Source of the DNA: Candidatus Nomurabacteria bacterium
GTDB taxonomy: Bacteria; Patescibacteriota; Minisyncoccia; Phycocordibacterales; UBA9973
Assembly: GCA_023267435.1 (NCBI GenBank)
Contig: JAHFNH010000005.1
Location: 1 to 51,604, forward strand
Length of the DNA stretch: 51,604 bases
Direction of reading: 5' to 3'
This document shows positions 4,060 to 51,604 of this stretch, one piece after another (positions within the stretch are counted from its first letter, which is position 1; each line of letters opens with the position of its first letter). The notes beneath the pieces are model-generated. The model made no database searches and was not told where the DNA came from. It worked only from the letters and a program-made list of their open reading frames with translations. A program made the translations under genes and the position numbers.

Positions 4060-4070
4060 AAATTTTCTTG

Positions 4071-5919: not shown

Positions 5920-5949
5920 CTGGTATTTATTAAGGTAATAGGGGAAATA

Positions 5950-5978: not shown

Positions 5979-6010
5979 CCGTTTTTATAATAGGTATATA
6001 TTTCTATTAC

Positions 6011-6019
6011 TGATATACT
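6011..6019 (+). promoter_or_regulatory. extended -10 (TGaTATACT), leaderless spacing
   Basis: TATACT at 6014-6019. ATG 6027 starts 7 nt downstream. Confidence 0.55.
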
Positions 6020-6026
6020 TCGTCAC

Positions 6027-6470: not shown

Positions 6471-6532
6471 TTGTTTGGAATTAAGGAGCTTTTTAACAGA
6501 GGCTCTTTTTTTATTTTAAAGAATTAAGATAC

Positions 6533-6561
6533 TTGCCATTTTGGGGTTTTTGAGCGATACT
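6533..6561 (+). promoter_or_regulatory. promoter TTGCCA-N17-GATACT, leaderless spacing
   Basis: TTGCCA at 6533-6538 and GATACT at 6556-6561. ATG 6568 starts 6 nt downstream. Confidence 0.45.
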
Positions 6562-6567
6562 CATTTT

Positions 6568-7218: not shown

Positions 7219-7326
7219 ATAAGAAAACACATTTCATTTGTCTAAAATATTACCTTTGTACTTAGGTAATATTTTTGCTATAGTATACATAGGTCTTATT
7301 ATTAATAGAATTATTAACTAAATTAT

Positions 7327-8052: not shown

Positions 8053-8059
8053 TTTATTT

Positions 8060-8665: not shown

Positions 8666-8736
8666 AGTGTCTTAAGTTTTTAAGGTTCAATTATATAGGG
8701 TTTCAGGTCGGAAAGATGTTCAGTAATTCTCTAGCT

Positions 8737-8765
8737 ATCATACAATATATTGATTGACAAGTCAA
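8737..8765 (-). promoter_or_regulatory. minus-strand promoter TTGACT-N17-TATGAT
   Basis: Reverse complement of 8760-8765 is TTGACT and of 8737-8742 is TATGAT. It contains the same 18-mer as the element at 4509-4526. Confidence 0.6.
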
Positions 8766-8792
8766 CATAGAAATTAACTTAATGCAATAAAT

Positions 8793-9611
8793 CTAGAACG
8801 AACTTAATTTCTTATATTCGTCAGCTTCTTTGTAAACGCCACCTAGATTTGTCAGACGGGCAAATGCTAAAAAGATGAAAGATAAAGCACCGTAAAATAG
8901 GAAATGGCTGATATACACTATTTGAAGCATAGGCATTCCTGTTTTTTGGAGAACATCATAAAATACATACTGGAGTGCTGACAAAGCTATCAAAATAAAA
9001 GAGGCAATAAAGTAATCCACAAAGCCGGACATAATAGGCACTTCACGCTTAATTTTGGACAAATAATTTATGCTGAAAAAAAGAGTGACCAAAACTATTG
9101 CTCCATAGACATAGACGATAGCTTCATTGGGTTCGAGAGAGACAGATATTTTTTTTAAGAAGATAGACAAGGTCAGAAAAAAGAACGCGACGATTCCGGT
9201 GATTAAAACACTGATTGTTGTGATAGGATTTCTTTTCAAGGCGTGAATAAAATATTCAGCGCCGACGGTGACCACGAGCATGCTTATTACATAAAAATTT
9301 ACGACATTTATAAAAATCGCATCTTCATATGTCTTGAATACCACGTATCCTAAAAACTCAACGATATGAGATAAAGATAAAATTACCAGAGCGACGGATC
9401 CTCCTATGATTAACAATTTGAGAAAACGATCATAAACATCATAATGGACAAAAATTCTTGAGATCGCCAAAACTACAAACAAAATAGCTATCAGATGTAT
9501 TATTCCGGTCTCTTGAAAAAAACTCCCGCTTAATTCTGTGGCAATAATAATAAGCACATTTAATGATAAAAGGACCCAAGGGTTTAAAATCTTCTCAAGC
9601 TTTATTTTCAT
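8793..9611 (-). CDS. polytopic integral membrane protein (about 8 TM helices)
   Basis: 272-aa ORF that is almost entirely hydrophobic helices. Confidence 0.8.
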   Translation of the reverse strand: MKIKLEKILNPWVLLSLNVLIIIATELSGSFFQETGIIHLIAILFVVLAISRIFVHYDVYDRFLKLLIIGGSVALVILSLSHIVEFLGYVVFKTYEDAIFINVVNFYVISMLVVTVGAEYFIHALKRNPITTISVLITGIVAFFFLTLSIFLKKISVSLEPNEAIVYVYGAIVLVTLFFSINYLSKIKREVPIMSGFVDYFIASFILIALSALQYVFYDVLQKTGMPMLQIVYISHFLFYGALSFIFLAFARLTNLGGVYKEADEYKKLSSF

Positions 9612-9617
9612 AAGTAA

Positions 9618-9626
9618 ATTATAACA
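9618..9626 (-). promoter_or_regulatory. extended -10 (TGTTATAAT), leaderless spacing
   Basis: Reverse complement of 9618-9626 is TGTTATAAT. ATG at 9611 starts 6 nt downstream. Confidence 0.55.
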
Positions 9627-9666
9627 AAGATTTTATTTTCCACTAGCGTAAAAATAAAAGAGTTAG

Positions 9667-9672
9667 TATAAT
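9667..9672 (+). promoter_or_regulatory. -10 box TATAAT, leaderless spacing
   Basis: TATAAT at 9667-9672. ATG 9679 starts 6 nt downstream. Confidence 0.5.
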
Positions 9673-9678
9673 AATGGA

Positions 9679-10200
9679 ATGGAAGATTTTGAACAATTAG
9701 AAAATAAAGAAGAGTTTAGAAGAATGCTTTTTATTATTGGCGGGATCGTTCTCGTTTGTGTGATTGTTACAGCTTTTTTATTGTTTAGAAAAACATCAAA
9801 AGTTGCTGTTAGTCCTGATGCATCAAACACTGTTGCTTCATCGACAACTTCTGCTAAACCAAAACCTCTTTTTTCTCCAGACCTTTCAACTTGGAAAAAT
9901 TATTACTGGCCTGGAAAAATCAATACGCACTATCCGAGTGATTGGCAGTTGAAAGAAGATACAAATAAAGATGGATTGATTGTAGGGTTGGAAATAACAC
10001 CACCGACGGGCATTGCAGACGACATGATTTTTATCGGCGGAGATTCAGCTAAATGCTCTAGCGTTTTAAAGTATTCAAAAAATGAATGTTTGAAAAATAA
10101 AATTCAAGTGCCTTTTTACACCAACAGCAAGAACGCAGAAGTTTCAACTGCTCTTGATTTGATTTTTCAAAACACAATCCTAACTGAAGGACAAAAATAA
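9679..10200 (+). CDS. membrane-anchored hypothetical protein
   Basis: 173-aa ORF with a single TM helix (MLFIIGGIVLVCVIVTAFLLF) and an extracytoplasmic domain. Confidence 0.75.
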   Translation: MEDFEQLENKEEFRRMLFIIGGIVLVCVIVTAFLLFRKTSKVAVSPDASNTVASSTTSAKPKPLFSPDLSTWKNYYWPGKINTHYPSDWQLKEDTNKDGLIVGLEITPPTGIADDMIFIGGDSAKCSSVLKYSKNECLKNKIQVPFYTNSKNAEVSTALDLIFQNTILTEGQK

Positions 10201-10453
10201 TAAGTTGATTTTTTATAAAAAAGTGTATTGTTAAGAGCAGTATGTTCTTTCTAGTATTAAAACACCAACTGCTTCGGACGATCATTGGTTAGAAGTATGT
10301 GACCAACAATTTTTTCATTTTGTTAGTAATTAAGTTTTCAGGTCTAAATTTTAAAAACAAGTTTTTTTCGGTTATTAAATTATTTAGTTTTATTTTTTTG
10401 TTTTAAAATTTATTGGTAGTTATTTAACACTTTTAATACTAACGAGAACAAAG

Positions 10454-10486
10454 ACCCAGTTCGACATTCGGCTGGGTTTTTTATTT
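10454..10486 (+). terminator. intrinsic terminator about 250 nt downstream of the preceding stop codon
   Basis: acccag..ctgggt stem with an inner cga/tcg pairing, followed by ttttttatttttt. Confidence 0.65.
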
Positions 10487-10560
10487 TTTAGGATAGAAAT
10501 TGGATTATTTTTTAAATATAAAGTATAATGAACTTATCTTATTAATAATTTTTAAAATAT

Positions 10561-10686
10561 ATGGCAAAAAGAAGCACAACACTTAGTCCAAAAAATAAAT
10601 CAAGACATTCCCACAAAACCAAGAAGCGACTTGCAACCAAGAAACTTACTCTTGCGAAAAAAGCTACCAAGAAGAGATTTAAATAA
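10561..10686 (+). CDS. unannotated small, very basic protein (41 aa)
   Basis: ATG..TAA ORF, hand-translated as MAKRSTTLSPKNKSRHSHKTKKRLATKKLTLAKKATKKRFK. TATAAT at 10524-10529 lies upstream and a strong terminator follows immediately. It is below the ORF-track length cut-off. Confidence 0.5.
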   Translation: MAKRSTTLSPKNKSRHSHKTKKRLATKKLTLAKKATKKRFK

Positions 10687-10695
10687 AAGTTAAGT

Positions 10696-10727
10696 AAAAA
10701 AGCCCTGATGTTTATCAGGGCTTTTTT
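10696..10727. terminator. bidirectional intrinsic terminator
   Basis: agccctgat/atcagggct 9-bp stem flanked by an A-run and a T-run. Confidence 0.8.
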
Positions 10728-10732
10728 GAATT

Positions 10733-11086
10733 TCAGTCTATTTTCCTTTTGGAAAAGAGAATCCACAATGCTTCTAAAATATAAACAAATGCTCCAAATG
10801 AAAGAATTAAACCCATGACATAAAACCATTTCTCCGCTTTTATGGGATGATTTTGTTCAATTCCACTAGACACTTTTTCTAAAATAACTTTTGTGTCTAT
10901 ATGTGAACTGAAAGTGAAGCATGTCATAGCCATGGCTGAAAAGACAAAAATAATTCCAAGTTTTGAAATTAAAGATGTGACTTTAACATTCATTTTGGGA
11001 TGAAATTTTTGTCCGTAATTCATCATGACTATTCCTGAGCAAAAAAGTGCAGCTGAAACAATGAGTAAGCAAATTTTTAGTACCAT
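10733..11086 (-). CDS. small membrane protein (4 TM helices)
   Basis: 117-aa hydrophobic ORF. Promoter at 11163-11191. Confidence 0.7.
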   Translation of the reverse strand: MVLKICLLIVSAALFCSGIVMMNYGQKFHPKMNVKVTSLISKLGIIFVFSAMAMTCFTFSSHIDTKVILEKVSSGIEQNHPIKAEKWFYVMGLILSFGAFVYILEALWILFSKRKID

Positions 11087-11162
11087 TTTTTATTTTTTTA
11101 AAGATTAAATATTAAGTCGTATTTTCATTTTTTAAAATTTAAATCTCAACAAATCTATTTTG

Positions 11163-11191
11163 ATAATATCAAAATAACTAGCTTTTGTCAA
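11163..11191 (-). promoter_or_regulatory. minus-strand promoter TTGACA-N17-TATTAT
   Basis: Reverse complement of 11186-11191 is TTGACA and of 11163-11168 is TATTAT. Confidence 0.55.
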
Positions 11192-11286
11192 ATTAATTTA
11201 TTATTATTTTTAATAAAAAAGAAAAGGGAAGTGTCGTGTGAGTTATCCACTTTCTGTATATAAATATTACTTTTCTTTGCATTATT

Positions 11287-11295
11287 TGGTATAAT
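11287..11295 (+). promoter_or_regulatory. extended -10 (TGgTATAAT) of the giant gene
   Basis: TGGTATAAT at 11287-11295. GTG 11302 is 6 nt downstream and ATG 11320 is 24 nt downstream. Confidence 0.55.
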
Positions 11296-11301
11296 TTAAT
11301 T

Positions 11302-14300
11302 GTGTACTCTACAAAATATATGAAAAAAATATTTCCGTATATTTTCAGCATATTTATTTTTTCCCTAAGTTTTTTTAATGGGTCGTCTTTTCTCTTGGCT
11401 GCTTATCCAGCGACCCCTTACGCTCCGGGTGAAACCTTGGCTCCGACTTGTGCGCCGGGAAGTTCTAATTGTACTGTTGATGCGCCTATTACTTCTTTAA
11501 ATGGCTTAACTGGTCTATCTCAAACATTTGCTATCGGTACTTCCGGTACTGATTTTAATATTGATTCTACAGGAACCATTCATACTTTTAATATTCCTGA
11601 TTCTTCTGCGACAAACAGGGGACTTTTAACCTCATCTGATTGGACAAATTTCAATAGCAAACTAGCTGCTGCTAGTAATTTGGCTGATCTGACTAGCGTA
11701 GTGGCAGCGAGAGGAAATCTTGGTTTGGGAAATGTTGAAGACACTGCGCTTTCTACTTGGGCAGGATCAACAGTTTTGACGACATTAGGTGCGATAATTA
11801 CTACAGATGCAAATGCATTAAAGATTTCTCCCAATGGAGTTCTTGCCGGAAATACTGGAGAGTTACGTTTTAATGAACTCGCAGCAAATGGCACAAACTA
11901 TACCGGCTTCAAGGCTCCGGATTCGCTGGCGGCAAATGTGATTTATACTTTGCCATCAGCTGATGGTACTGGTGGACAAGTTTTAAAAACAAATGGAACA
12001 GGTGGTTTAAGTTTTGGTGATTTGAGTACTGATAATTTAATTTATCCAAATATAAATAACGCAGAAGGGTTCACTCATATATTTAGTGACGTAGCTTCTT
12101 CTGGTTGGATTTCTGGTGGTGAAATAACGGATGTTGGTGGCGGAGATGTGGATGTCGCTGCAGGAGAAGGCTTGATTCGATCTTTAAATGATCCTGAAGC
12201 TCAACTCTTGTATATTTCTTGGCCAGTAGCTACAAGTTTAAATGTCCCTTTAAATACTACTAGATATTTTGTCGTCAATTATAATGCCGGAAGCCCAGTT
12301 GTTAATATTTTAACTTCAGAACCATCGGATTTACAAACAAATATATTTTTAGGAGAAGTTCATAATGTTGGCGGAGTTCTCGATGTTCATAGCGCTCCTA
12401 GAGCAATTAATGATTTTGCAAAAAGAATGACGGATTGGTCTTCTGATATTATTGGTAATAGAGTTGCTTCCGGTGAAGTTGTTACAGATCCAACTTTCCC
12501 ATCTAGAAAAATTGCGGTTTCATCTGGAGTTGTCTGGACAAAAAATTTAAGTAACATAACCACACCAGCTTTTAATTCTAACGCTAGTGATACTTTTGTA
12601 AATTATTACAGAGATAGTTTTGGTGGATGGATTAGAGAAACAGGTCAGACTGATTGGGAAAATACAAAATGGGATAATAATTCTGGAACACTTCAGACAA
12701 TGACTCCTGGGTACTATGCCAATAGATGGGTAGTAAGAGGTATTAATGGACAGATTTCCATACTTTATGGACAAGCAGAATATTCTACACAACTTGCAGC
12801 ACAAAATGAATCTGCTCCAACTCAAAGACCAGAAGAATTTAACGAAGATGGTTATTATATTAGTCAGTTGGTTTTCCAGAAAAGTGCCGCTTCTTCTGAT
12901 TTAACAATTTCAATTAAGCCCATAATCGGTGGCATAGCTGGTACTAGTGGATCAAGTAATCACAATGATTTGGGTGGTTTGCAAGGCGGGACAGTAAACG
13001 AATATTATCATCTTACTGCAGCTGAACACGTAATTGCAACACAAGTGGCAACAGCTCTTCAGAGTGGATATTTATCTTCATCTGACTGGACGACATTTAA
13101 TAATAAAGCCGGTAGTGGAGCCAATAATGATATCACAAGTTTGTCTGGACTTACTACTGCTTTGTCTGTTGGTCAGGGAGGTACCGGAGCTACAACTGCC
13201 AATGGAGCATTTAATAATTTAATACCTTCTCAAGCAACAAATTCTGGTAAGTTCCTTACAACTAATGGCACGAATACGAGTTGGGCAACAGCCGTAACAT
13301 CTGAATCTGATCCACTGGCATTAAAAATTTCAAATAATTTATCGGACATTCTCAGCGCTTCTAGTGCTAGAGCAAATCTTAGTGCGGCAGCTAGTGGAGC
13401 TAATACTGATATCACATCACTTAATCCTGCTGGAGCACTTACTGTTGATTCAACAGCAGCGCTTAATTTAGGTACGACAAATGCTACCTCGGTTTCTATT
13501 GGTAATTCTAGTACAACTACAACAGTAAATGGGTCACTAGCAGTTTCTAAGTATATTGATTTTACCCCTACAATTGAACCTTCATATATGGAAGGAAGAG
13601 TTTATTATGATAGTAATGATCACGCTCTTTCTTTTGACACAGACATAAATGGTACCGATATGTCTATTGGTCAGACTGTTATGGCTCGTGTAAAAAATAT
13701 TACCGGAGCAACAATTTTAAAAGGAAAGGTTGTTTATGTTAGTGGTAGTGATGGAGCTGGATTTTCAACGATTGCATTGGCAAAGGCAGACAGCTTTTCT
13801 ACTTCTCAGGTTATTGGAATTGTGGTAACTGATATCACTACTGGATCTTATGGTTATGTGACATTTATTGGTCATGTGCATGATCTAGACACCTCAGCAT
13901 TTTCGGCTGGAGATATTGTTTATCTATCATCAACTACCGCAGGTGGATTGACAACAATTAAACCGTTTTCTCCAAATTACTCAATGCCAGTGGGTATTGT
14001 TCAAATATCAAATGCAATAACAGGTATTATTGAAGCTCATACAACTTCAGTTACTGTTGGAGCATTTACTACAGGTTCAGTAGCATTTGGAAATACAGAT
14101 GGGTTTACAACTCAGGATAATACAAACTTTTTTTGGAATAATACGACCAAGCGTTTAGGTATCGGAGATAATACTCCCTCTAAGACTTTTACCATTGGTA
14201 ATGGTACACCTGGTAGCAATATGTTTGGTGTAGATGGTTCAACTGGTGATGTTGCAACACAAGGAAATATTAATGCAGTGGGTAATATTACATTAACTAC

Positions 14301-17300
14301 TGGAGGTGGCAGTGTTAGCGCTACTGGTGGCGGACTTGCACTTTCTGGTGCAGGCGCTTCTAGCTTGACGACAAGTAGTGGAGGTTTGACTTTGACTGGC
14401 GCAGCTGCTTCAGCCTTGTCGACAACTTCTGGAGCTTTGACTCTTACATCTGCTTCAGGTGCGACATGGGGAACAAGTACAGGGAATCTTTTATTGCAGG
14501 CAGCAAGTGCGGGTGCAGCTAGTGTGATAATCGGTTCTGGTGCAGGCTCTGCTACACCTGATACATTAGTTTTAGATATAAAGAATGATAATGCCACTGA
14601 TCCATCTGGTAGTGCTGGAGCGATGTACTACAATTCTAGTTCTAATAAATTTAGATGTTATGAGAATGGAATTTGGATAGATTGTATTTCTATTGATAAC
14701 GACACCCTTTCATCTTTATTGGCGGCAGCTAGTGGTAGTACTATAAACAACGGTGATAATGCTCAGAATTGGAATTGGGCATTGACGACAGCTGATAAAG
14801 CAGGACTTAACTTTGGAGAAAATACTCCTTCGACTGCTACCGGTTTGTCTGCGGTGCTTAAAGCTTCAACTTTGGTTACATCGACAGCAATGCCACTTTA
14901 TGTTTCAAATCTTGGCGATGGAAATAGTTTCAGAGTTGATGATGAACCAAGTGATATGACTCCGTTTCTTATCGACAAAGATGGCAATGTGGCAATCGGT
15001 GCAGATTCGTTTGATCCGACAAATCCAGAACGTTTGAAAGTTGTGATGCCTTCCGGTAGTACTTCATTTAATGTTATTAGTGGTGAAGGAGATGTAAATA
15101 ATTATCTTCAATTAAATATACATAATGCTAATGCTGGAGACACTGCTTCTTCTGATTTAGTTGCTACCTCTGATCTTGGTAATGAAAATGTCGGATATAT
15201 TGATCTCGGTATTAATTCTTCCAATTACAATGTTCCGGCCCTTTCGATTGTCGGACCAAATGATACATATTTATATGCTAGTGGAGGATTGGCGTCTGGT
15301 GGAAATTTGGCTATTGGAACTGCTGACACTGGAACTGCGCTTAAGTTTCATACTGGTGGTACAACTTCAGCCGATGAAAGAATGAGAATTACAGACGATG
15401 GATTAGGTAATCCGTTAGTGGGGATTGGCACGACAGCTCCAGGATCTGCTCTTGATGTAAAAGGTGAACTTAGATTATCCGGTTCAACTTCTGGTTTTGT
15501 CGGTTTTACTACGAATGTAGCAGCTGGTTCTACGACTTATACACTTCCAAATACTGATGGTGGGATCGGTGATGCTTTAACTACAAATGGTGCAGGAGTT
15601 TTATCTTGGGTCCAGCCGACGGGTGTATGGCAGAGAGTGGCCACAACTGTTTCTCCAACAACTGCGGGGGACAATATTACAACTTCTGGAAATATTTATA
15701 CCAGTGGAACAGGGGCAGTTACTTCAGCTGGATTATTGACAGCAAATGCTGGACTAGCTGTGACTGGTGCTGATGTTAATTTAAATGCAAGTAGCAATAA
15801 TAATACAAATATAAATACAGGTACATCGACTGGTTCAATCAGTATTGGAAATAATTCTGCTGGTGCTATTGGTATTACAAGTGGAACAGGACTTACTTTG
15901 ATCGGCGGTGCAGCATCTAGTTTCTCAACTACGGCTGGTTCCATTACTTTCCAACCAGCTGGCACTGGCATATCTTCAGCTGTTCAAATTGGCACATCAA
16001 CTGCCAAGGCGACTCCCGATATGCTCGTACTTGATGCTGGAAATACTGATCCAGTTTCTGGAACTATTGGTGGAATGTATTACAACACTGTCAGCAATAA
16101 ATATCGCTGTTATATAGGAGCTTCTTGGGCCAACTGTGCTGACAATGGAAGCGGTTTAGATTTGCAAAATGTTTATGGTAATGGTTCATCTATCTCTACT
16201 TCTGGTACGGATATAGCTCTAACTCTAAATACAACTGATCAATTTACTGTCACTGGCGCTGGCGCAGTAAATCTAACTCCAACATCTGCATCTTCATTCA
16301 CTTCTGCTGGCGCTCTTACTTTCACTGCCGGCGCAGCTTCAGATTGGGGAACATCAAATGGTGATTTAGTTTTACATGCAAATGGTTCAGCGACCGGTGG
16401 TGTTCATATTGGTTCCGATGGTGTTCCTTCAGCTACGCCAGATTTGCTTTCTTTGGATATTAAGAGTCTAGCCAGTGGAGTATCAGATCCAGCTGGAGAT
16501 AATGGTGACATGTATTTCAATGAGGCCTTAAGTTCTTTCCGTTGTTATGAGGGTAGCGGTTGGCAAGATTGCGGTGCGTCAGTCGCTAGTGCGACAACTT
16601 TGCAACAAGCATATACAAGCAATCCAACCATTACAACCGCTTCGTCTACTAATCTTGCTTTAATTCTTTCTTCTGGAAATTTCACAGCGTCTGGTACAGG
16701 ATCAGTGCTTCTGACACCAACTGGTGCATCTTCATTCACTTCTGCCGGCGCTCTTACTTTCACTGCCGGTGCAGCTTCAACCTGGTCCACTTCTTCCGGA
16801 GCTTTAACTCTTGATTCAGCAGCTGCGCTTAATTTCGGTACTACAAATGCTACTAGTGTGTCGATAGGAAAGACAGGTGTGACAACAACAAACAACGGTT
16901 CTTTAACTTCAACTCAAACTTTGACAGCATCGAATGGTTTAACACAAACAACTGGCGCCTTAAACTTAACTGCAACATCTGGTGCGTTAAACTTGTCCGG
17001 TTTAGGTGTGAGTGTTATCGATACAGGTGCGAATAGTTTATCTTTGGTTGGCGGTCCGATTAATCTAAATTCAACTGGTACTGGTTCCACAAATATCGGC
17101 AATCTTACTGGTTCTGTAAATCTTACTGGTTCTGTAAATCTTACTGGTTCTGTAAATCTTACTGGTTTAACTGCTTCTAAGGCAGTATTTACTGATGCTT
17201 CTAAAAATCTAACTTCAACCGGTACTGTTGCCATCGCTCAAGGTGGTACAGGACAGACTACTGCTTCGAGTTCATTTAATGCTTTGTCGCCAGTGACAGC

Positions 17301-20300
17301 AAAAGGAGATTTGATTCTAGGTAATGGTGTGAATAGCACTGCAAGATTGCCAGTCGGTGGAACGAATGGAACTGTCTTAACAGTTGATTCAACACAAGCG
17401 ACAGGTGTGAAATGGGCAACAATTGCTTCAAGTTTAGGTAATGTTCTAGATTTTTCAGAACTTAAAGATGCCTTGACTCTTGATGCAAATACTTCCATAG
17501 CATTAGCTGGTAAAAATTTAAGTGTTACAGATACTGGTGCTGGAAATATTAGTCTCACTGCTGGTGGTGCAATAAGTCTCACTGCTGGTGCAGCTTCAGC
17601 TTTCTCAACTACATCCGGTGGTATTTCTCTTCAGCCAGCTGGTGCTGGTACTTCTGTTGTACAAATCGGTGCTGGTGGTGCAGGTTCAACCACACCAGAT
17701 TATTTAGCTCTCGATGTTAAATCATCAACCAGTGATCCGGCAGGAGGCGCAGAAGGATATATGTATTACAATACTTTTGATAATAAATTCCGCTGTTATG
17801 AAAATGCCGGATGGAAAGATTGCGATACGACAGGTGGCACGGTTACTTTGCAATCTGCGTATGACGCCGGCCAATCCATAAATCTAACTAGCGGTGCCTT
17901 AGCAATCTCTGGCGCCGGCGCAGTTAATTTAACTCCAACATCAGCATCATCATTTATTTCAGGCGGAGCATTAACTTTCACTGCAGGCGCAGCTTCAACT
18001 TGGTCTACAAGTTCCGGAGCTTTAACTCTTGATTCAGCTACTGCACTTAATCTCGGTACGACGAATGCAACGAGTGTATCGATTGGTAAGACGGGTACCG
18101 TAGCGACTGTAAACGGTTCACTGACAATTCCAAATTATATTGATTACACCAGTACTAGTTTGCCTGCGTACGCAGAGGGTAGAGTATTTTATGATTCCAC
18201 AGATCATGCTTTAGCGTATTACAACGATGTCAATGGTATTAGAATGAATATTGGCAGACAGTTATGGTTACGCGTAAAAAATACAACTGGAGTAACAATC
18301 TCTGCTGGTAAGGCGGTTTACTTAAATGGTACAGATGGAACATTTCCAACTGTCGCCTTAGCTAAAGCAGATAGCTTATCAACTTCTCAAGTCGCTGGTA
18401 TTACGACAGCCGATATCACAGACGGATCTTATGGATACGCTACACTTAAGGGACTAATTCCTGATTTGGATACTTCATCATTCACGACTGGAGACACTAT
18501 TTATTTGTCAGCAACTACTGCTGGGGCACTCACAATCACAAAACCAGCAGCTCCAAATTATTCAATGCCTTTAGGTATTATTGAAAAAGGTTCAGACGCG
18601 ATAACTGGAAGTATCGAAGCTAATATTGCTGCTCCTACTGCTGGATCATTTACAGCAGGTTCATTATCTTTTGGTGGGACAGATGGCTTAACAACTCAAG
18701 ATAATACAAATCTATTTTGGAATAATAGTAGTAAGAGATTGGGAATAGGAGATAATGCTCCGGGATCAACATTTACTATTGGTAATGGCACACCTGGTAG
18801 TAATAAGTTTTCTGTTGATGGTGCGACAGGAAACGTTGTCACAGCTGGAACTTTGTCTGTGAATGGTGGAATAATTAATACAAACACTGCTTTTACAATT
18901 AATTCATCTGGTGCAAATGCTTTGACTTTGGATTCTACTACTACCGGTACAGTTAATTTAGGTACCAGTAATAATGCTAAGACCATCAACATCGGTACAG
19001 GTACAGCCGGTGATGCGATAAACATTGGAACAAACAATACTACTGCTGATACTATCTCTATCGGTTCTGCATTAGATACATTTTCTCTTTCTTCAACTGG
19101 ATTGAAAGTTTCTTCTGCTGGCGCTCTTACAGGAGTCGCTTCGGTAAACAAAGTTGCTATCACTGCGCCGGCAACAGGTTCGACACTGACCATTGCCGAC
19201 GGTAAAACTCTAACTTCTTCAAATACGCTTACTTTTGCAGGTACAGACGGATCAACACTCAACATCGCTACAGGTGGAACACTGGGAACTGCTGCGTTCA
19301 CTAATACCGGTGCATATGAAGTACCGCTTACTTTTTCTACTGGACTTACAAGATCAGTTAATACTGTCACAGTAAACACAACTCAAAATATCGCTAAGCT
19401 TTCCAATTTGACTTCTAATGGATTTGTAAAAACAAGTGGTGGAGATGGAACTCTTTCTGTTGATACGAGCACATACCTTACCTCTGAAGCTGACACTCTT
19501 GCTTCTGTCACTGGACGAGGTGCGACGACATCAAGTAATATTTCAACCACCGGTACCGGTACTATTACTTCTGCCGGATTGTTGACAGGTAGTGCTGGAC
19601 TTACTATAACTGGTGGAACTGCAAATCTTAACATAACAGGAACTTCGAATACTGCTATCGGTAATTCTACCGGAACATTTAGTTTGATTTCAAGTGGTGG
19701 ATTGAATGTTACAACTGCAGGTGCACTTACTGGTGTTGCTTCAGTTAATGCTAATGCAGTAGATCAGTCGATAACTATTGGAAACGGTACCGGTGTCTCC
19801 GCTCTTACTTTTAATTCTGGTACAGGAGCTATTAATATAGGCACTAATGCTATTGCTCATAATATCAGTATTGGTAATCAAACTGGTACTTCTGCTTTGA
19901 CTCTTGATTCTGGAACAGGAACTATAGCAATAGGAACAGGAGCGCAAGCAAGAACTGTAAACATTGCGAATGGCGGTGCTGTACAGACAGTTACTTTAGG
20001 TTCGACAAATAGTACCAGTGCTTTGACTTTGCAAGCAGGAACAGGAGGATTGAGTATTCAAACCCAAGGTACTGGAGTATTGGGTATTGGTAATAATGCA
20101 GTCGCTCAGACTATTACTATTGGTAATACATCAGGTACAGCAACCGTGACAACTGCGGTAAATATTACAGCTGGTGCTGGTACGACTACTGGAGGCATAA
20201 GAATGACTGGACATATATTAACAGCAGGCACAATACCGACACAACTCCAAAGTGCTGGTACTGCCACGGTTTCAACTGGTTCTACTGATTTTGCTGGTGT

Positions 20301-41739: not shown

Positions 41740-42786
41740 ATGTTTAAAAAATTTTACAAATTAATTTCAAATGATATCGGTATAGACTTGGGTACTGCTA
41801 ATACTTTAGTGTATTTGAAGGGTCACGGCATTGTGATCAATGAGCCTTCCGTGGTAGCAGTCAACCAAAAGACAAATCAGATTTTAGCTGTCGGTATGCA
41901 AGCGAAAGAAATGCTTGGCCGTACTCCAGGACACATCAAAGCCATTCGTCCGCTTGTCGATGGTGTCATTTCTGATTTCGAAGTTACTGAAGAAATGCTT
42001 TCTTATTTCATAAATAAAGCTGATAAAATTTCTAAGAAAATGGCGCGACCGAGAGTGGTGGTGGGTGTGCCATCCGGCACAACAAATGTCGAGACTCGCG
42101 CTGTGTATGATGCAGCTCGTAGTGCTGGTGCGCGCGAAGTTTATCTTGTCGAAGAACCTATGGCAGCTGCTATCGGTATACGTCTACCTACCAGAGAACC
42201 TGTCGGTTCGATGATTATTGATATCGGGGGAGGAACTACAGATATCGCAGTGATTTCTTTGGGAGGTATCGTAAAATCAAAAAATTTGAAAATAGCGGGA
42301 GATAGATTGAATAATGACATCATCACTTATATGCGTGATGAGTTTAAGATTTTAATCGGTGAGAAAACAGCTGAAGCTGTAAAAATAGCTATTGGTTCAG
42401 TTATTCCGGTTGAATATATGGAAACAGAAGTTCGTGGACGAGATTTACTAACAGGACTTCCAAGAGAAGTTGTGGTGACTGATTCTGATATCCGCGAAGC
42501 TATTTCATTGTCTATTAAAGAATTAGTGGAAGGAGTTAAGGATGTTTTAGAAACAACACCGCCTGAAATCCTTTCGGATGTTATGCATAAAGGTATTACT
42601 CTTTCTGGTGGCGGAGCATTGTTAACTGGTCTCGACCAGCTTCTTCAAGATATTTTGAAAATTCCTGTTTATGTCATCGATGATCCTCTTTCCGCTGTGG
42701 CTCGCGGAACAGGAGTTATATTGGATGATTTAGAATCTTATCGTGAAGCTCTAATCGGTAATCAAGATGAGTTACCTCCTAGATAG
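41740..42786 (+). CDS. mreB: rod-shape-determining actin homologue MreB
   Basis: DIGIDLGTANTLVY, VVGVPSGTTNVETRA and DIGGGTTDIAVISLGG. Confidence 0.95.
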   Translation: MFKKFYKLISNDIGIDLGTANTLVYLKGHGIVINEPSVVAVNQKTNQILAVGMQAKEMLGRTPGHIKAIRPLVDGVISDFEVTEEMLSYFINKADKISKKMARPRVVVGVPSGTTNVETRAVYDAARSAGAREVYLVEEPMAAAIGIRLPTREPVGSMIIDIGGGTTDIAVISLGGIVKSKNLKIAGDRLNNDIITYMRDEFKILIGEKTAEAVKIAIGSVIPVEYMETEVRGRDLLTGLPREVVVTDSDIREAISLSIKELVEGVKDVLETTPPEILSDVMHKGITLSGGGALLTGLDQLLQDILKIPVYVIDDPLSAVARGTGVILDDLESYREALIGNQDELPPR

Positions 42787-43686: not shown

Positions 43687-44901
43687 ATGGAATTCAAAAT
43701 AGAAAAAAAATTAAAGAATAGTTTGGGACGCGTTGGAGTTTTGACCACTCCACACGGAGTTATTTTAACTCCTTCTTTTGTAGCGGTTGGTACCAAGGCG
43801 ACAGTGAAATCTTTGAGTCCTGATCATGTCAGAGAAGCCGGCACTCAAGTCGTGCTCGGAAATACTTATCACTTATTTTTACAACCCGGAGATGAGATAG
43901 TTGCCAAGGCCGGAGGTATTGGGAAGTTTATGAATTGGCAGGGTCCGACGATGACTGACTCGGGGGGTTTTCAAGTTTTTTCTCTTGGTGCTGCTTACGG
44001 AAAAAATATTTCTAAAGTTATTCAAATCACTGATCCATCGCTGATGATTCCTGAAAGATTTGATGATTCAGATGCTCCGCGCCTAGCAAAGATTGGCCAA
44101 GACGGCGTGTCTTTCAAGTCGCACTTGGATGGATCAATTCATTACATTACTCCGGAGAAATCAATTCAAATCCAGCACAATCTCGGCGCGGATATGATTT
44201 TTGCTTTTGATGAATGCACTAGTCCTGCGGAAGATTTAAAATATCAAGAAGAAGCTTTAGCTCGCACGCATGCTTGGGCAAAGAGATGTTTGGAAGAGCA
44301 TATTAAATTAAATACTGAAAATAAAATTAGTTTGTTTGGAATCGTGCAAGGAGGCAGGGAAGAAGAGCTTCGTAAAAGATCTGCGAAAGTTATTTCTGAA
44401 ATGCAGGTAGATGGAAAAAGTTTTGATGGTTTCGGTATCGGTGGATCTTTTGCAAAAGAAGATATGAGTACTGCAGTGAAATGGGTGAATGAAATTTTAC
44501 CGGAAGAAAAACCTCGTCACTTGCTCGGCATCGGAGAGCCGGAAGATTTATTTATGGGCATAGAAAATGGTGTGGATCTTTTTGATTGTGTCTTGCCGAC
44601 ACGCCTAGGAAGAAATGGAACAATATATACAAAGAAAGGAAAGATAATTATTACTAATGCGAAATTTAGAGATGACTTTACTCCCGTCGAAGATGATTGC
44701 GAATGTTATACCTGTAAAAATTATCAGCGCGCTTATATTGCTCATTTATTCCACGGCAAAGAAATGCTCGCAGGAACTCTAGCCTCAATACACAACTTAC
44801 ACTTCATAGTAAACTTAGTTAAAAAAATCCGTCAGAGTATCGTAGACGATACATTCTATCAATTTAAGGAAGAATTCTTGAAAAACTATCAATCCCGTTA
44901 G
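43687..44901 (+). CDS. tgt: queuine tRNA-ribosyltransferase
   Basis: DSGGFQVFSL, FAFDECT, LLGIGEPEDL and the Zn site CECYTCKNY..AHLF. Confidence 0.95.
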   Translation: MEFKIEKKLKNSLGRVGVLTTPHGVILTPSFVAVGTKATVKSLSPDHVREAGTQVVLGNTYHLFLQPGDEIVAKAGGIGKFMNWQGPTMTDSGGFQVFSLGAAYGKNISKVIQITDPSLMIPERFDDSDAPRLAKIGQDGVSFKSHLDGSIHYITPEKSIQIQHNLGADMIFAFDECTSPAEDLKYQEEALARTHAWAKRCLEEHIKLNTENKISLFGIVQGGREEELRKRSAKVISEMQVDGKSFDGFGIGGSFAKEDMSTAVKWVNEILPEEKPRHLLGIGEPEDLFMGIENGVDLFDCVLPTRLGRNGTIYTKKGKIIITNAKFRDDFTPVEDDCECYTCKNYQRAYIAHLFHGKEMLAGTLASIHNLHFIVNLVKKIRQSIVDDTFYQFKEEFLKNYQSR

Positions 44902-45333: not shown

Positions 45334-47424
45334 ATGCCAAACAATAAATTCAAACTTCATACTGAATACCAGCCTGCAGGGGATCAGCCAAAGGCTATTA
45401 AAGGTCTTTTAGAAGGTTTGAAAAAAGGTATGCACAAGCAGACCCTTTTGGGTGTGACTGGTTCTGGTAAGACTTTTACTGTGGCGAATGTTATTGCCGA
45501 GATGAATAAACCGACATTAGTTATTGCCCATAACAAAACTCTCGCAGCTCAGCTCGCTCAAGAATATAAAACTTTTTTCCCAGAGAATGCGGTGCATTAT
45601 TTCGTTTCTTATTATGATTATTATCAGCCAGAAGCATACATGCCGACGACAGATACTTATATTGAAAAAGATGCGCAGATAAATAAAGAAATAGATCGTT
45701 TGCGTCACGCTTCGACTCAAGCTCTTTTAACTCGCAAAGATGTGATTATTGTCGCTTCGGTTTCTTGTATTTATGGTTTGGGAAGTCCGGAAGAATACAA
45801 GGAAGAGAATTTAGAGATAGCCATCGGAGATAAAATAACTCGCACAGATTTAATGTCTCGATTGATTGCAATGCATTTCGAAAGGACGAATGCAGATCTG
45901 ACTCCGGGTACTTTTCGCGCGTTGGCAAATAAAATAGAAATCATGCCAGTGTCGGAAAATTTTTTGTATAGTATTGATTTAGAAAAAGAAAAAGTTGAAA
46001 GAATTATTCGCATTGATCCAGTTTCTTCACATATTCTTTCCGAAGAAAATAGTATTTTTATTTTCCCAGCAAAACATTTCATAACCAATAAAACAAAATT
46101 AGCGAAAGCGATAAAAGATATTCAAGCAGAGTTAAAACTGCAATTAAAAAAGTTTGATAAAGAAGGAAAACTGCTAGAAGCAGAGAGAATAAAACGCAGA
46201 ACAAATTATGATATCGCAATGCTTCGTGAAGTAGGATATTGTTCCGGAATAGAAAACTACTCTCGTCTTTTGTCGGGCAAGAAAGCTGGTGAAGCACCTG
46301 AGACTTTGCTCTCTTATTTCGGTAAAGATTTTCTTACTATCATCGACGAATCACATGTCACACTGCCACAGCTTGGTGGTATGTATGCGGGTGATGCTTC
46401 TCGTAAAAATACTTTGATTGAACACGGTTTCAGACTACCAAGTGCGAAAGATAATAGACCTCTTAAATATGATGAATTTGAAAAAAGAATCGGACAGGTT
46501 ATCTATACCACCGCGACTCCGTCTGATGTGGAAAGAAAAGAAAGTGATCAGATTGTAGAGCAAATTATTCGCCCGACAGGGCTTATAGACCCTGAGATTG
46601 AAGTTAGACCTGTTACGAGTTCCTTTCCCCCTTTGCCAAGGGGGAAAATGAAAGGGGGTGATGAATCTATGCACCTCACCCCAGCCCTCTCCTTAGCGAA
46701 GGAGAGGGGGAAGCAGTACCCCGGCCAGGTTCAAGATTTCATCGCAGAAGCAGAGAAAGAAATTAGAAAGGGTGGCCGAGTGATAGCGACAACTTTGACT
46801 AAAAAAATGGCGGAAGATTTGTCTGCGTATTTGAAAGACAAAAAAATAAAATCAGAGTATGTGCACAGTGATATAAAGACGATTGAACGCATAAAAATTT
46901 TGACAGAATTTCGTCGAGGAACTTTTGATATTTTAGTCGGAGTGAACTTACTCCGTGAAGGTTTAGATTTACCAGAGGTGACACTCATTGGTATTTTAGA
47001 TGCGGACAAAGAAGGATTTTTGCGTTCAGAAGTTTCTTTGATTCAGACCATCGGACGTGCTGCCAGAAATGTCGCCGGACGCGTTATTCTTTACGCAGAT
47101 AGAATCACAGGTTCAATGGAACGTGCAATGAAAGAAACAAACCGCAGAAGGGAAATACAAGTTGCCTATAACAAAAAACATAACATTACACCAAAAACAA
47201 TTATCAAAAAGATAAATGATATTACTGAAGCTCTTGATAGTCTGCATGATAAAGCAGTGTCTTCTGAGTTGGCACTTGATACGAAACTTTTTGCGAAAAA
47301 TCCTTCGAAACTTGTAAAATTAAAAGAACGCCAAATGTCTGAAGCTGTGAAGGCTCTTGATTTTGAAACTGCCGCGATTCTACGCGATGAATTGAAAATT
47401 TTAAAAGAAAGATTAGTAAAATAA
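45334..47424 (+). CDS. uvrB: excinuclease ABC subunit B
   Basis: GVTGSGKTF Walker A, DESH, TLTKKMAEDL, LLREGLDLPEV, QTIGRAARN and a C-terminal UVR motif. Confidence 0.97.
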   Translation: MPNNKFKLHTEYQPAGDQPKAIKGLLEGLKKGMHKQTLLGVTGSGKTFTVANVIAEMNKPTLVIAHNKTLAAQLAQEYKTFFPENAVHYFVSYYDYYQPEAYMPTTDTYIEKDAQINKEIDRLRHASTQALLTRKDVIIVASVSCIYGLGSPEEYKEENLEIAIGDKITRTDLMSRLIAMHFERTNADLTPGTFRALANKIEIMPVSENFLYSIDLEKEKVERIIRIDPVSSHILSEENSIFIFPAKHFITNKTKLAKAIKDIQAELKLQLKKFDKEGKLLEAERIKRRTNYDIAMLREVGYCSGIENYSRLLSGKKAGEAPETLLSYFGKDFLTIIDESHVTLPQLGGMYAGDASRKNTLIEHGFRLPSAKDNRPLKYDEFEKRIGQVIYTTATPSDVERKESDQIVEQIIRPTGLIDPEIEVRPVTSSFPPLPRGKMKGGDESMHLTPALSLAKERGKQYPGQVQDFIAEAEKEIRKGGRVIATTLTKKMAEDLSAYLKDKKIKSEYVHSDIKTIERIKILTEFRRGTFDILVGVNLLREGLDLPEVTLIGILDADKEGFLRSEVSLIQTIGRAARNVAGRVILYADRITGSMERAMKETNRRREIQVAYNKKHNITPKTIIKKINDITEALDSLHDKAVSSELALDTKLFAKNPSKLVKLKERQMSEAVKALDFETAAILRDELKILKERLVK
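46618..46725 (+). repeat. in-frame GC-rich triple-hairpin insertion within uvrB (palindromic-element-like)
   Basis: Three hairpins: tttccccctt/aagggggaaa (46624-46647), ggggtga/tcacccc (46655-46682) and ccctctcctt/aaggagaggg (46685-46708). About 57% GC by hand count against AT-rich flanks. Encodes SSFPPLPRGKMKGGDESMHLTPALSLAKERGKQYPG where E. coli UvrB has only VRPVATQVDDL. Confidence 0.7.
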
Positions 47425-48200: not shown

Positions 48201-48683
48201 ATGAATAAAATTAATTTAAAACCAAACTATTTTTTAGTTAAATGCATAATTATTTTTCTTATAATTATTGCAGGTTTTATTTTAATTAAAAATTATATTC
48301 CTAAAAAAAATGTTGAAGTAGTTACTAATCATTATCTAAAAATCGCAGGGCAGAAAATCAAAGTCGATTTGGCTCTAACCGCTAAAGAACAAGAACAAGG
48401 ACTTTCGGGGCGAGCCGGTTTGAATGAAAATGAAGGGATGCTTTTTGTTTTTCAAAATTCTTTGCCGAATTTTTTCTGGATGAAGGATATGAATTTCCCG
48501 ATAGATATGATCTGGATTAGTAAAGACATGAAGGTTGTATATATTAAAAAGAACGCGACGCCGGAATCTTACCCAAATGCTTTCGGTCCCAATGTAAACA
48601 CAAAATATGTTTTAGAAGTTGTTTCTGGATTTTCGGATAAGAATAATTTGAAAGAAGGGGACAGTGTAGAACTTTTACCTTAA
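48201..48683 (+). CDS. DUF192 (COG1430-like) protein with N-terminal anchor
   Basis: GLSGRAGLNENEGMLFVF...FWMKDMNFPIDMIWI matches the DUF192 pattern. Confidence 0.8.
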   Translation: MNKINLKPNYFLVKCIIIFLIIIAGFILIKNYIPKKNVEVVTNHYLKIAGQKIKVDLALTAKEQEQGLSGRAGLNENEGMLFVFQNSLPNFFWMKDMNFPIDMIWISKDMKVVYIKKNATPESYPNAFGPNVNTKYVLEVVSGFSDKNNLKEGDSVELLP

Positions 48684-48696
48684 TAAAAATAAAAAC

Positions 48697-48736
48697 AAAA
48701 CAGCCCCGTCGCTCGAGAGCGACGGGGCTGTTTTTA
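48697..48736. terminator. strong bidirectional intrinsic terminator
   Basis: 14-bp GC-rich stem cagccccgtcgctc/gagcgacggggctg flanked by an A-run and a T-run. Confidence 0.9.
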
Positions 48737-48747
48737 ATTAATAATTA

Positions 48748-50739
48748 TTACATAGGCAAGTTATCTACATGATCAGCACTTCCTTTTTGAATAGCTTTTG
48801 TCATATAGTAATCTGCATAGATTTTTCTTCCGACAACTCCAAGTCCTAATAGAACTAGAAGTAATGCGAGCCATCCGAGAAGAGTAGAAGGAAGGAAACT
48901 TGCTCCAAAGAGGGAGTTTGCTTCAAGTCCAGTGCCTGCAGTTACATGATTTGTAACATAAGCGATTTCATCTTTCTCGACGGTTGATCCAGCCAAGTTG
49001 TAAGTCATGACAGCTGTTGTGATGATTACATTCTTACCAGAAGCATTTGAGTTAAGCGCGCCTTTGATAGTCATAGAACCAACTTGATTTGGAACCAATA
49101 TTCCAGCATCTAATGTTACAAGATTGTTTGAATCTACTTTTCCGAAGTTTGAATCTTTGAAGTCTATTTCTTTTGGAAGCTGGACTGAGATTACTGCATT
49201 CTCGATATTCGCTGAATTAGTATTTGTGAATGTAACCAAGTATTCGATATCACCACCTACTGAGATATTGTCTGCAGTGGTTGTGATTTTTAGAACAGAA
49301 CTTTGATCAGTTGTGACAGCTGATGGTGTATTGTTACTTGCAGTATTGTCTGGAACTGTACTTGCTCCTTTTGTTTGGAAGACTAGAACATTTCCTTTCA
49401 AAGTAGAACCTTGATTCACAGCTATTGCTCGGAAGTAATAGATAGTGCCAGGAGCAAGATTACTGATTGTGTCTGAGAAACTTACAGAAGATGAACTGCC
49501 TAGAGCTTTAATGGATGTTAGAGATCCCAAAGATGCAGTACTGCCGTATTCGAAATATCCTTGAGAAGAATTTCCATTTTGATTAATAAAGACTCCGTTC
49601 AATCTTGCTGAAGTACTTGTCTGATTAGTTGCTTGTACTGTAGTTATTGCACTATTCAATGTGCCAGTAGTGAAGCTTGAAATATTTCCTTTTACTGTGC
49701 CATAAGAATTATTTGCAACAGCACGGAAATAATAAGTTGTGTTTGGATTAAGGCCGGTTGTACTTTGCACTAAGGATGAAGATCCGTTTGCTGCACCTTC
49801 GGCGGTATGAGTTGTCTCATTGAAACTTGCTAAAGTGCTTCCAGTTCCGTATTCAAACCATGCAGTAGTAGTGTATCCGTTTGGATTGACTGAACCATTG
49901 AAGACTGCGGAATTGCTTCCGACGTTTGTCGCGCTCTGAGTTGTGACAGAAACAGGATAATTTAATCCAGTTCCGAAAGCACCTGGTGTAGGGTTACTGT
50001 TAGTAACAGTAAATACTGCTCCACTTGAGCTACAACCATTGTTTGCAATTGTGATAGTTTCAGTGCCTGCACTTGCCAAATCAGAGGGTGTTAAAATCAT
50101 AGTGATTTGATTTTGGTAGATACTTCCAAAAATAGATCTAGTGTATCCATTAAAACGTGGTACAGAAGTATTGTCAAAATTGTTTCCACTGATGACGACA
50201 TAAATTGTTCCAGATCCAACGACAGCAGAAGAAGGTGAAAGGGAAGAAATAGTTGGATTCAATCCGCAACCACCACTACCGCCTCCACCACCACTTGGGT
50301 TAGGATTTGGGTTTGGATTAGGGTTGTTAGAAGTAGAAACAGAAGATATTGTACCGTATGTAGAATTCACTGTTCCACCATTCACATTAGATGCGATGGC
50401 TCGGAAATAATAAGTAACTCCAGCTGTGATAGTTGGTGTACTTACAGTACAAGTAAATGATCCAGAACCTGGTGCTGCAGGTTGAAGATTCTGACAGACA
50501 ATCATTCCATTACCAGCTTGATTGTTTGGTAGATCATTTTGGTTGGCGGAATATTCAAACATAGTAGTAGTCTGACTTCCGTTAGCCATAAAGTTTCCAT
50601 TAAATGTAATGGATGAAACTGTCGAGCTTTGTCCTGTTGTTGAAACAGTAGGGGCTGAAGCTGATGCAAAACTAGCTCCAACGCCGAAAAACGCGACTAA
50701 AACGAAAACGAATATTAATTTTTTTGTAATGTTTTTCAT
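48748..50739 (-). CDS. cell-surface protein: Fn3-like repeats, NP/G linker, IPT/TIG-like domain, DUF11-like domain, C-terminal TM anchor
   Basis: Signal peptide. Four repeats, each carrying a (T/I)YYFRA(I/V)A motif. PTISSLSPSSAVVGSGTIYVVISGNNF is IPT-like. GGDIEYLVTFTNTNSANIENAVISVQLP is DUF11-like. C-terminus is FLPSTLLGWLALLLVLLGLGVVGRK. Confidence 0.85.
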   Translation of the reverse strand: MKNITKKLIFVFVLVAFFGVGASFASASAPTVSTTGQSSTVSSITFNGNFMANGSQTTTMFEYSANQNDLPNNQAGNGMIVCQNLQPAAPGSGSFTCTVSTPTITAGVTYYFRAIASNVNGGTVNSTYGTISSVSTSNNPNPNPNPNPSGGGGGSGGCGLNPTISSLSPSSAVVGSGTIYVVISGNNFDNTSVPRFNGYTRSIFGSIYQNQITMILTPSDLASAGTETITIANNGCSSSGAVFTVTNSNPTPGAFGTGLNYPVSVTTQSATNVGSNSAVFNGSVNPNGYTTTAWFEYGTGSTLASFNETTHTAEGAANGSSSLVQSTTGLNPNTTYYFRAVANNSYGTVKGNISSFTTGTLNSAITTVQATNQTSTSARLNGVFINQNGNSSQGYFEYGSTASLGSLTSIKALGSSSSVSFSDTISNLAPGTIYYFRAIAVNQGSTLKGNVLVFQTKGASTVPDNTASNNTPSAVTTDQSSVLKITTTADNISVGGDIEYLVTFTNTNSANIENAVISVQLPKEIDFKDSNFGKVDSNNLVTLDAGILVPNQVGSMTIKGALNSNASGKNVIITTAVMTYNLAGSTVEKDEIAYVTNHVTAGTGLEANSLFGASFLPSTLLGWLALLLVLLGLGVVGRKIYADYYMTKAIQKGSADHVDNLPM

Positions 50740-51170: not shown

Positions 51171-51604
<434 letters not shown>

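Follow-up and report, generated by a model that had tools for sequence, protein, structure and literature searches.

A GC-rich palindromic insert in the uvrB gene of a Candidatus Nomurabacteria bacterium, probably one copy of a small dispersed repeat of the Candidate Phyla Radiation

The stretch of DNA analyzed here (the window) comprises 51,604 nt of contig JAHFNH010000005.1 from a Candidatus Nomurabacteria bacterium, and contains a uvrB gene with a GC-rich, hairpin-forming insert at the hinge between two helicase domains of the encoded protein. Based on comparison with related genomes, the insert is probably a single copy of a palindromic repeat that is small, non-autonomous and GC-rich and is found in Paceibacteria/Nomurabacteria-type bacteria of the Candidate Phyla Radiation (CPR); this copy lies in frame in a linker of UvrB. 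The repeat belongs to a family dispersed across several genes and genomes, the copies of which are more alike than the genes that host them.

The dispersed nature of the element is best seen in a 22-kb stretch of a Candidatus Nomurabacteria metagenome-assembled genome (MAG), designated L002, which harbors copies in uvrA, in the uvrB hinge, in tgt and in uvrC (two copies, one of them partial), as well as a copy directly upstream of the uvrA start codon. Over its 93 nt, the window element shares 90% identity with the uvrA copy of L002, 87–88% with the uvrB hinge copy and 86% with the uvrC copy; the copies in tgt and upstream of uvrA are more diverged. A covariance model (R1) built on 11 copies matched the window only at 46614–46718 (110 bits), the next match, a terminator-like repeat, reaching 16 bits. 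When applied to 1.0 Mb of loci, the model revealed about 19 distinct copies, all of them in CPR contigs, and at E ≤ 0.001 it found no copy in the gut-bacterial or Bacteroidales loci searched. The family occupies uvrA, uvrB, uvrC, tgt and two intergenic sites in at least 12 CPR contigs. In total, 17 of the 19 copies are intragenic, and 16 of these 17 are oriented alike with respect to the host gene, with recognizably similar encoded peptides (SFPPSLRGKMKGGVES.HPTPTLPLAKGRG in the closest subfamily), the sole exception being the tgt copy, which scores best in the opposite orientation. In the intergenic copy of L020, TAATAA across the loop of the first hairpin, as read by eye, makes a stop in the frame used by the intragenic copies. 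An earlier note on this DNA, made from the sequence alone, had likened the insert to the Rickettsia palindromic elements (RPEs), which land in frame in protein-coding genes, and the copies in uvrA, uvrB, uvrC and tgt, with their shared orientation and similar peptides, support that comparison.

Searches with short words and with the encoded peptide returned little. The 21-mer of the element had no match in viral contigs. A word-indexed protein search, for which two element peptides were joined into a 63-aa query, gave only two candidates sharing words, neither of which scored. When the 33-aa peptide of the insert was compared by phmmer with 1.84 billion cluster representatives, only two hits emerged, both spurious (low-complexity tandem-repeat proteins with scores summed over several stretches); the clustering at 50% identity probably hides insert-carrying hosts from the latter search. 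Separately, an intergenic double hairpin, CCTTCCCCCAnGGGGGAAGG-N10-TTTCCCCCTTGGGGGAAAATGAAAGGGGGTGA, was observed in about 15 Bacteroidales species (loci L003–L022, e.g., L008 4715–4790), which has no match to an Rfam family. This double hairpin and hairpin 1 of the CPR element have about 40 nt and an exact 21-mer in common. It was rejected as the same element because only these ~40 nt are alike, it lies outside ORFs, and the covariance model misses it at E ≤ 0.001; the resemblance may stem from common ancestry, from common machinery or from convergence.

Comparison of UvrB orthologues demonstrated that the hinge is filled in some relatives, empty in others, and occupied by unrelated sequences in still others. 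Among the 120 nearest UvrB clusters (67–94% identity, 657–762 aa, annotated as Nomurabacteria, Paceibacteria or Minisyncoccia), 80 carry a hinge insert, with the loop grown to 15–67 residues and many unrelated families represented. The relatives share a basal hinge loop of about eight residues (ADKKYPG, TASKKYPG, SEKGxY(K/P)G), also when they have no insert. Metagenome uvrB loci were found by scattered peptide patterns and tblastn, and are thus independent of gene calls; 27 out of 57 of them contain a hinge insert, nearly always GC-richer than the gene and folding at −20 to −60 kcal/mol. Through every insert, uvrB remains free of stop codons and a multiple of three in length (58 out of 58 CPR loci).

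The presence-or-absence polymorphism for which the earlier note had proposed aligning uvrB orthologues was found even at high protein identity. At 94% UvrB identity (L001), a different subfamily is present at the same codon; at 88% (L105), the hinge holds an unrelated 48-nt perfect palindrome with 20-nt arms that abuts a host Tyr codon; and at 84% (L104), the loop is empty and reads GTG ACA GCT TCT AAA AAG TAT CCG GGT, empty sites being seen at 83–84% identity overall. The divergence of the inserts does not follow that of their hosts. Between the window and L002, uvrB shares 72% nucleotide identity and its flanks 71–78%, whereas the elements share 87–88%; between the window and L001, uvrB shares 86% and the flanks 84–93%, whereas the inserts, being of different subfamilies, share 60%. 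A remnant of an element of the L034 type is kept in L042, and a remnant is also found in L063. UvrB has further insertion sites, at one of which P0059 carries the peptide family found in the hinge of P0002. In tgt of the window (43687–44901, 404 aa), two sites are empty at which the closest relatives, L001, L105 and L002 (464, 472 and 436 aa, respectively), have inserts of 18–50 residues, that of L002 being a copy of the same element family. Such decoupling of inserts from hosts, together with the empty sites and remnants, argues for gain, loss and replacement of the inserts, unlike the behavior of a vertically inherited loop.

In the translated window ORF, the hinge of UvrB reads IEVRPVT-SSFPPLPRGKMKGGDESMHLTPALSLAKERGKQYPG-QVQDF. 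When the protein is aligned to solved UvrB structures, its additional residues 429–462 (34 residues) fall exactly between DVRPIE and GQIDDL of Bacillus UvrB, at the junction of helicase domains 1 and 3. The uninterrupted reading frame and the gap in the Bacillus alignment agree with the earlier description of 108 additional, in-frame and stop-free nucleotides (Table 1). The length of the element itself had to be revised: the insert is real, but the repeat, as delimited by its copies in other genes, spans 93 nt and not 108, the K-Q-Y-P-G codons at its end being part of the basal loop. In the AlphaFold2 model of UvrB (63-sequence alignment as input, mean pLDDT, i.e., predicted local distance difference test score, of 75), the strand 421–425 and the helix 465–478 on either side of the insert are modelled confidently, and most of the insert itself falls below a pLDDT of 50. 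The model is compatible with a flexible loop at the protein surface, between the helicase domains, as had been anticipated. The tryptic peptide predicted from the window insert is GGDESMHLTPALSLAK, with SFPPSLR as its counterpart in relatives. An identical 696-aa protein is also encoded by another contig, of 10 kb and listed under an ENA sample accession, which is possibly from the same source as the window.

The G–C content of the region 46618–46725 is 57.4%, compared with 37.4% in the rest of uvrB and 36.3% in the window, which matches the hand count of about 57% made before; it is the top GC peak of the window and its strongest fold per base. All three hairpins and the complementary ends described earlier were recovered, and in the predicted fold of the window copy a TTCC/GGAA closing stem turns the three hairpins into a four-way junction. 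The G at 46654 lengthens the G run of hairpin 2 and adds no base pair. Hairpin 3 resembles hairpin 1, and the two constitute terminal inverted repeats, each of them self-complementary: about 28 nt at the 5′ end and about 28 nt at the 3′ end are mutual inverted copies and each forms a hairpin. RNAalifold can pair these ends within or across, the pairing across being even preferred. Some copies of the element extend to GAGTTCC...GGAACTC. Two of the six reading frames of the element are free of stops, namely forward frame 2, which is the frame used, and one frame on the reverse strand.

The minimum free energy of the fold is −51.5 kcal/mol, with a z-score of −2.4 against shuffles of equal composition, 4 out of 200 of which fold as well. 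As the fold is only 2.4 standard deviations better than these shuffles, the GC content explains much of its stability. The patterns of both 10-bp hairpins (up to three mismatches allowed) occur once each in the window and in none of 100 dinucleotide shuffles. Across 11 copies, the three-hairpin structure is 84% paired. The closing stem (helix 1) is 75% paired, with changes on both sides in three of its four pairs; hairpin 1 (helix 2) is 92.5% paired with three compensatory pairs, and hairpin 2 (helix 3) is 80.5% paired with none. In hairpin 3, a compensatory change distinguishes the arms of the window copy from those of L002 (CCCTCCCCTT/AAGGGGAGGG). The covariation exceeds that of column shuffles (0 out of 500). 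Rfam searches at gathering thresholds and at permissive E-values gave no meaningful match to the insert and none near a gathering score, and neither a tRNA nor a tmRNA gene was found at the insert site.

Inserts of this general kind are not confined to uvrB. In 889 kb of CPR loci, 113 GC-rich, strongly folding islands were detected, 91 of them inside long ORFs and a few corresponding to rRNA or tRNA genes; the annotated hosts include MreB, MreC, TGT, UvrA, UvrC, Ddl, DNA polymerase I (PolA) and RecJ. At least 14 such GC-rich hairpin islands lie within 2400–15500 of the 19-kb locus L027, in mreB, mreC, tgt, uvrA, uvrC and ddl, whereas the window holds a single one, so the density of such elements is very uneven between CPR genomes. 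The GC peak of the window at 42031–42170 was considered as a second insert and rejected, as it is the conserved core of MreB. Another family, of 72 nt, is represented by four copies with 92–97% identity and sharp ends in uvrA, uvrC and, twice, uvrB of one contig. The UvrA loop after EALNVFL and the PolA linker after RLKSFF, which joins the exonuclease and polymerase domains, hold different palindrome families in different lineages, like the UvrB hinge. Most simply read, insertion would be frequent, with survival limited to insertions that are in frame, free of stops, and located in permissive linkers.

A sister family encoding the peptide RRSHSxLEGQ has a conserved core and outer arms of 11–23 nt that differ by locus. 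Its 3′ arm is conserved host coding sequence (codons for PDFL at one site and for YPGQI at the hinge), and its 5′ arm is the reverse complement of that sequence. The arms track the synonymous codons of the host, some genomes combining CCTGATTTT with AAAATCAGG, and another one CCCGACTTC with GAAGT..CGGG. As judged from the sequences, this pattern suggests the product expected of fold-back or template-switch DNA synthesis. The palindrome arms of the window family showed no complementarity to the host YPGQ codons beyond chance (5 nt compared with a cross-locus mean of 4.2).

Orthologous copies of the element change slowly. The uvrA copies of three species differ at 2–6% of positions with no bias in codon position, whereas third codon positions in the flanking 1.2 kb of uvrA differ at 17–26% (Fisher p from 1e-5 to 4e-4). 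The copies thus diverge about four times more slowly than the neighboring synonymous sites.

Table 1. Coordinates of the host gene, the insert and its parts, and of related inserts in other CPR loci.
Feature	Positions	Strand	Basis or remark
Host gene uvrB	45334–47424	+	Uninterrupted 696-aa ORF containing the element; UvrB Pfam domain set; E=6e-232 to solved UvrB structures
108 nt (36 codons) extra relative to E. coli and Bacillus UvrB	46618–46725	+	Alignment gap between query residues 428 and 463
Repeat element proper, TTCCTTTCCCCC...GGGGGAA	46620–46712	+	93 nt, 31 codons; ends set by comparison with copies in other genes
Closing stem, 5′ half TTCC	46620–46623	+	Pairs with GGAA 46709–46712 in the fold
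Hairpin 1, TTTCCCCCTT-TGCC-AAGGGGGAAA	46624–46647	+	10-bp stem, loop TGCC
Residues 432–456, pLDDT <50	46627–46701	+	AlphaFold2 model
Hairpin 2, GGGGTGA-N14-TCACCCC	46655–46682	+	7-bp stem, 14-nt loop
Hairpin 3, CCCTCTCCTT-AGCG-AAGGAGAGGG	46685–46708	+	Perfect 10-bp stem, loop AGCG
Closing stem, 3′ half GGAA	46709–46712	+	Fold
Codons K460-Q-Y-P-G464	46711–46725	+	Basal 8-residue hinge loop, outside the element; AA of K460 overlaps the element end
Orthologous uvrA copies	L002 13826–13918; L014 1082–1174; L023 2206–2298		
UvrA loop and PolA linker examples	L043 9190–9262; L040 7201–7295; L030 6299–6781		
RRSHSxLEGQ family copies	L041 11020–11130, 6905–7010; L050 2103–2207; L053 10980–11095; L069 785–890; L034 11267–11377		

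Several other features of the window were recorded. Long diverged direct repeats (90–190 nt, 65–81% identity) are found at 13400–20200, with an exact 18-nt tandem at 17101–17167. A CACCTG/CACCTGCACCTG tandem repeat at 6863–6934 possibly encodes an Ala/Pro-rich tract, if in frame. Between a convergent DUF192 gene and a 663-aa Ser/Thr/Asn/Gly-rich ORF, an inverted repeat of 34 nt, the core of which is GC-rich (GCCCCGTCGCTC/GAGCGACGGGGC), occupies 48681–48750; this repeat, the best non-self match of the covariance model in the window (16 bits), is a putative bidirectional terminator. At 51171–51604, a bacterial 16S rRNA gene is present with its 5′ 423 positions and runs off the window end; it could help to place the organism.

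According to the reading favored here, the element would be transcribed and translated with uvrB, forming a surface loop of about 31 residues, flexible and rich in Pro, Gly and Lys, that is tolerated by UvrB. Copies would be retained only in permissive loops, and only if inserted in frame and free of stops, and such selective survival would lead to the same few linkers of UvrB, UvrA and PolA being refilled by unrelated palindromes. The element has sharp ends. Its spread may proceed through single-stranded hairpin DNA, either by copy-choice or fold-back template switching at the replication fork or by an HUH-type enzyme acting in trans. The evidence weakly favors hairpin-dependent copying of single strands as the mechanism, and a classical cut-and-paste transposase is less likely. 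A more far-reaching proposal is considered unlikely, though it is stated here for completeness: that Paceibacteria-type CPR bacteria carry a large, undescribed population of GC-rich palindromes in inter-domain linkers of essential proteins (UvrA, UvrB, UvrC, PolA, RecJ, MreB, MreC, TGT, Ddl), which would need no transposase for their spread, relying on template switching primed by hairpins in which flanking host codons are copied into the palindrome, and the hairpins of which would be under nucleotide-level constraint for an acquired host function, e.g., translational pausing between domains.

A number of observations weigh against the interpretation of the insert as a mobile, translated repeat. 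The expectation of further copies was borne out in related genomes (86–90% identity) but not in the 51.6-kb window itself, where neither the hairpin patterns nor the covariance model found a second copy, so that multi-copy status in the host organism is unsupported. An exact 21-mer of the element is present in only five CPR genomes among 185,579 species genomes, with three exact hits or fewer in each; RPEs reach a much higher abundance in Rickettsia than this subfamily does here. No transposase or autonomous partner was seen, no search aimed at transposases having been made, and no target-site duplication was found either by comparison of filled with empty sites or in the four recent copies of the 72-nt sister family. 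The covariation score of the structure (0.253) is modestly above that of a slid-partner control (0.226). It is from conservation of the frame alone that translation of the insert is predicted. Finally, the slow divergence of orthologous copies is unlike that of pure junk, and points to nucleotide-level constraint, to homogenization between copies, or to replacement after speciation.

The same slow divergence would fit an alternative in which the host selects the GC-rich hairpin cluster as an mRNA or DNA structure, acting in ribosome pausing, mRNA protection or protein binding, with the peptide as a by-product. This explanation, which is compatible with a mobile origin, appears improbable. It would account for uvrA copies changing about four times more slowly than flanking synonymous sites and evenly over codon positions, for the compensatory changes in hairpins 1 and 3, for the recurrence of inserts at the domain linkers of UvrB, UvrA and PolA, and for the 5′ arm of the sister-family palindrome matching the host's own synonymous codons in the 3′ arm. 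However, unrelated palindromes of very different length and shape are found at the same codon, many close relatives have none, and remnants persist in L042 and L063; gene conversion between copies or recent replacement would also give slow divergence. A structured RNA element nested in the coding region had been named in the earlier note as its own alternative, and of this idea the slow divergence is the part that fits, while the absence of an Rfam match and a slid-partner control nearly as high as the proposed structure speak against it. Local manufacture of the palindrome by template-switch or fold-back synthesis from neighboring sequence, without copying from another locus, is suggested by the locus-specific outer 11–23 nt of the RRSHSxLEGQ family, in which the 5′ arm is the reverse complement of the host 3′ arm, and by the perfect palindrome of L105 with its 20-nt arms abutting the host Tyr codon. 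For the window element such an origin is very improbable: its identity of 86–90% over the whole 93 nt with copies in other genes and genomes indicates that its sequence was copied from a pre-existing element, and the complementarity of its arms to the flanks does not exceed chance. Template switching may be the way in which this copy was made.

The two remaining explanations can be given hardly any credence. If the insert were an ancestral, vertically inherited and diverged loop of CPR UvrB, and no repeat, the extra hinge residues in many Paceibacteria UvrB proteins and the basal eight-residue loop common to all of them would be accounted for, but this is contradicted by the presence of the same sequence in uvrA, uvrC and tgt, by the empty sites at 83–84% UvrB identity, and by an insert whose conservation exceeds that of the gene when the hosts are distant and falls short of it when they are close. 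No conservation of the 36 residues is seen across UvrB, and the site carries many unrelated inserts, up to about 60 residues long, contrary to what the earlier note had reasoned an ancestral loop would display. It is just as hard to accept that the 93–108 nt are left untranslated, as an intron-like or bypass element comparable to that of T4 gene 60 or to the mitochondrial byp elements. The one point in its favor is that strong hairpins within an ORF are typical of bypass elements. The frame is kept without stops through all inserts in 58 out of 58 uvrB loci, and the shared orientation with similar peptides (16 out of 17), in a sequence with only two of six frames open, would be a pointless constraint if the insert were skipped; furthermore, there is no match to an intron or ribozyme family, and a length of 31–36 residues is well below that of an intein or of a group I or group II intron. 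Thus, a dispersed palindromic repeat inserted in frame remains the preferred explanation of the uvrB insert.

Within the full-text-searchable literature, nothing describing such elements was found for CPR, Patescibacteria or Parcubacteria, in agreement with the earlier note, according to which nothing comparable was described for CPR bacteria. If the interpretation as dispersed in-frame repeats is true, much of the length variation of conserved CPR proteins would be explained, such as that of UvrB (657–762 aa among the nearest relatives). Such inserts are a potential source of error in alignments, phylogenies and structure predictions that use CPR marker genes, and they may serve as natural maps of insertion-tolerant loops in UvrA, UvrB, UvrC and PolA. 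The host-codon arms of the sister family, together with the slow divergence of copies, would offer handles on the origin and persistence of palindromes that have no transposase.

Several classes of known repeats resemble the CPR element in part. [quoted passage not shown] MITEs are mainly intergenic, usually produce target-site duplications and often have a recognizable parent insertion sequence, whereas the CPR element is intragenic in 17 of 19 cases, with no duplication or parent seen in what are partial genomes only. Having terminal inverted repeats and no target-site duplication, it is outside the classical definition of a MITE. The repetitive extragenic palindromic (REP) sequences and bacterial interspersed mosaic elements (BIMEs), associated with the HUH enzyme RAYT (REP-associated tyrosine transposase), and the palindromes derived from IS200/IS605 elements are also GC-rich hairpins without target-site duplication, for which single-stranded mobilization is likewise plausible. 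REPs are extragenic by definition and have GTAG or CGTC heads, as stated in PMC3733652. In contrast, 17 of the 19 CPR copies are intragenic, and neither GTAG nor CGTC is present in 46620–46712. In organelles, the yeast var1 GC clusters are an example of mitochondrial GC-rich mobile hairpins. Mitochondrial GC clusters, double-hairpin elements and repetitive hairpin-forming elements (e.g., PMC2800124) are GC-rich mobile hairpins in AT-rich compact genomes that are sometimes translated inside coding sequences, and in this they are similar to the CPR element. They differ in being organellar and mostly intergenic, and no homology is implied.

The closest parallel drawn is with the RPEs, which PMC10969869, citing Ogata et al. 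2000 (Science 290:347), describes as dispersed palindromes inserted in frame, with a conserved peptide that is compatible with the fold of the host protein; in the same review, selfish palindromes translated in frame at high frequency are reported mainly from Rickettsia. Both kinds of element are short dispersed palindromes in frame in unrelated housekeeping genes, mostly in one orientation and hence encoding a similar peptide. Both are predicted to lie in fold-compatible loops, neither has a known transposase, and both reside in small AT-rich genomes of organisms thought to be host-dependent. On the other hand, the CPR element is 72–110 nt long, compared with about 100–150 nt for RPEs, and is strongly GC-rich on an AT-rich background. 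It consists of three hairpins, its sister families being single long hairpins, and the same few linker codons are contested by many unrelated CPR families. Per genome, this subfamily appears to have few copies, and the hosts belong to another phylum. Given the different phylum and the opposite base composition, homology to RPE-1 to RPE-10 is unlikely, and the two are likened by behavior and not by sequence. A second, apparently much more diverse instance in CPR bacteria would show that the phenomenon known from Rickettsia is general to small AT-rich genomes.

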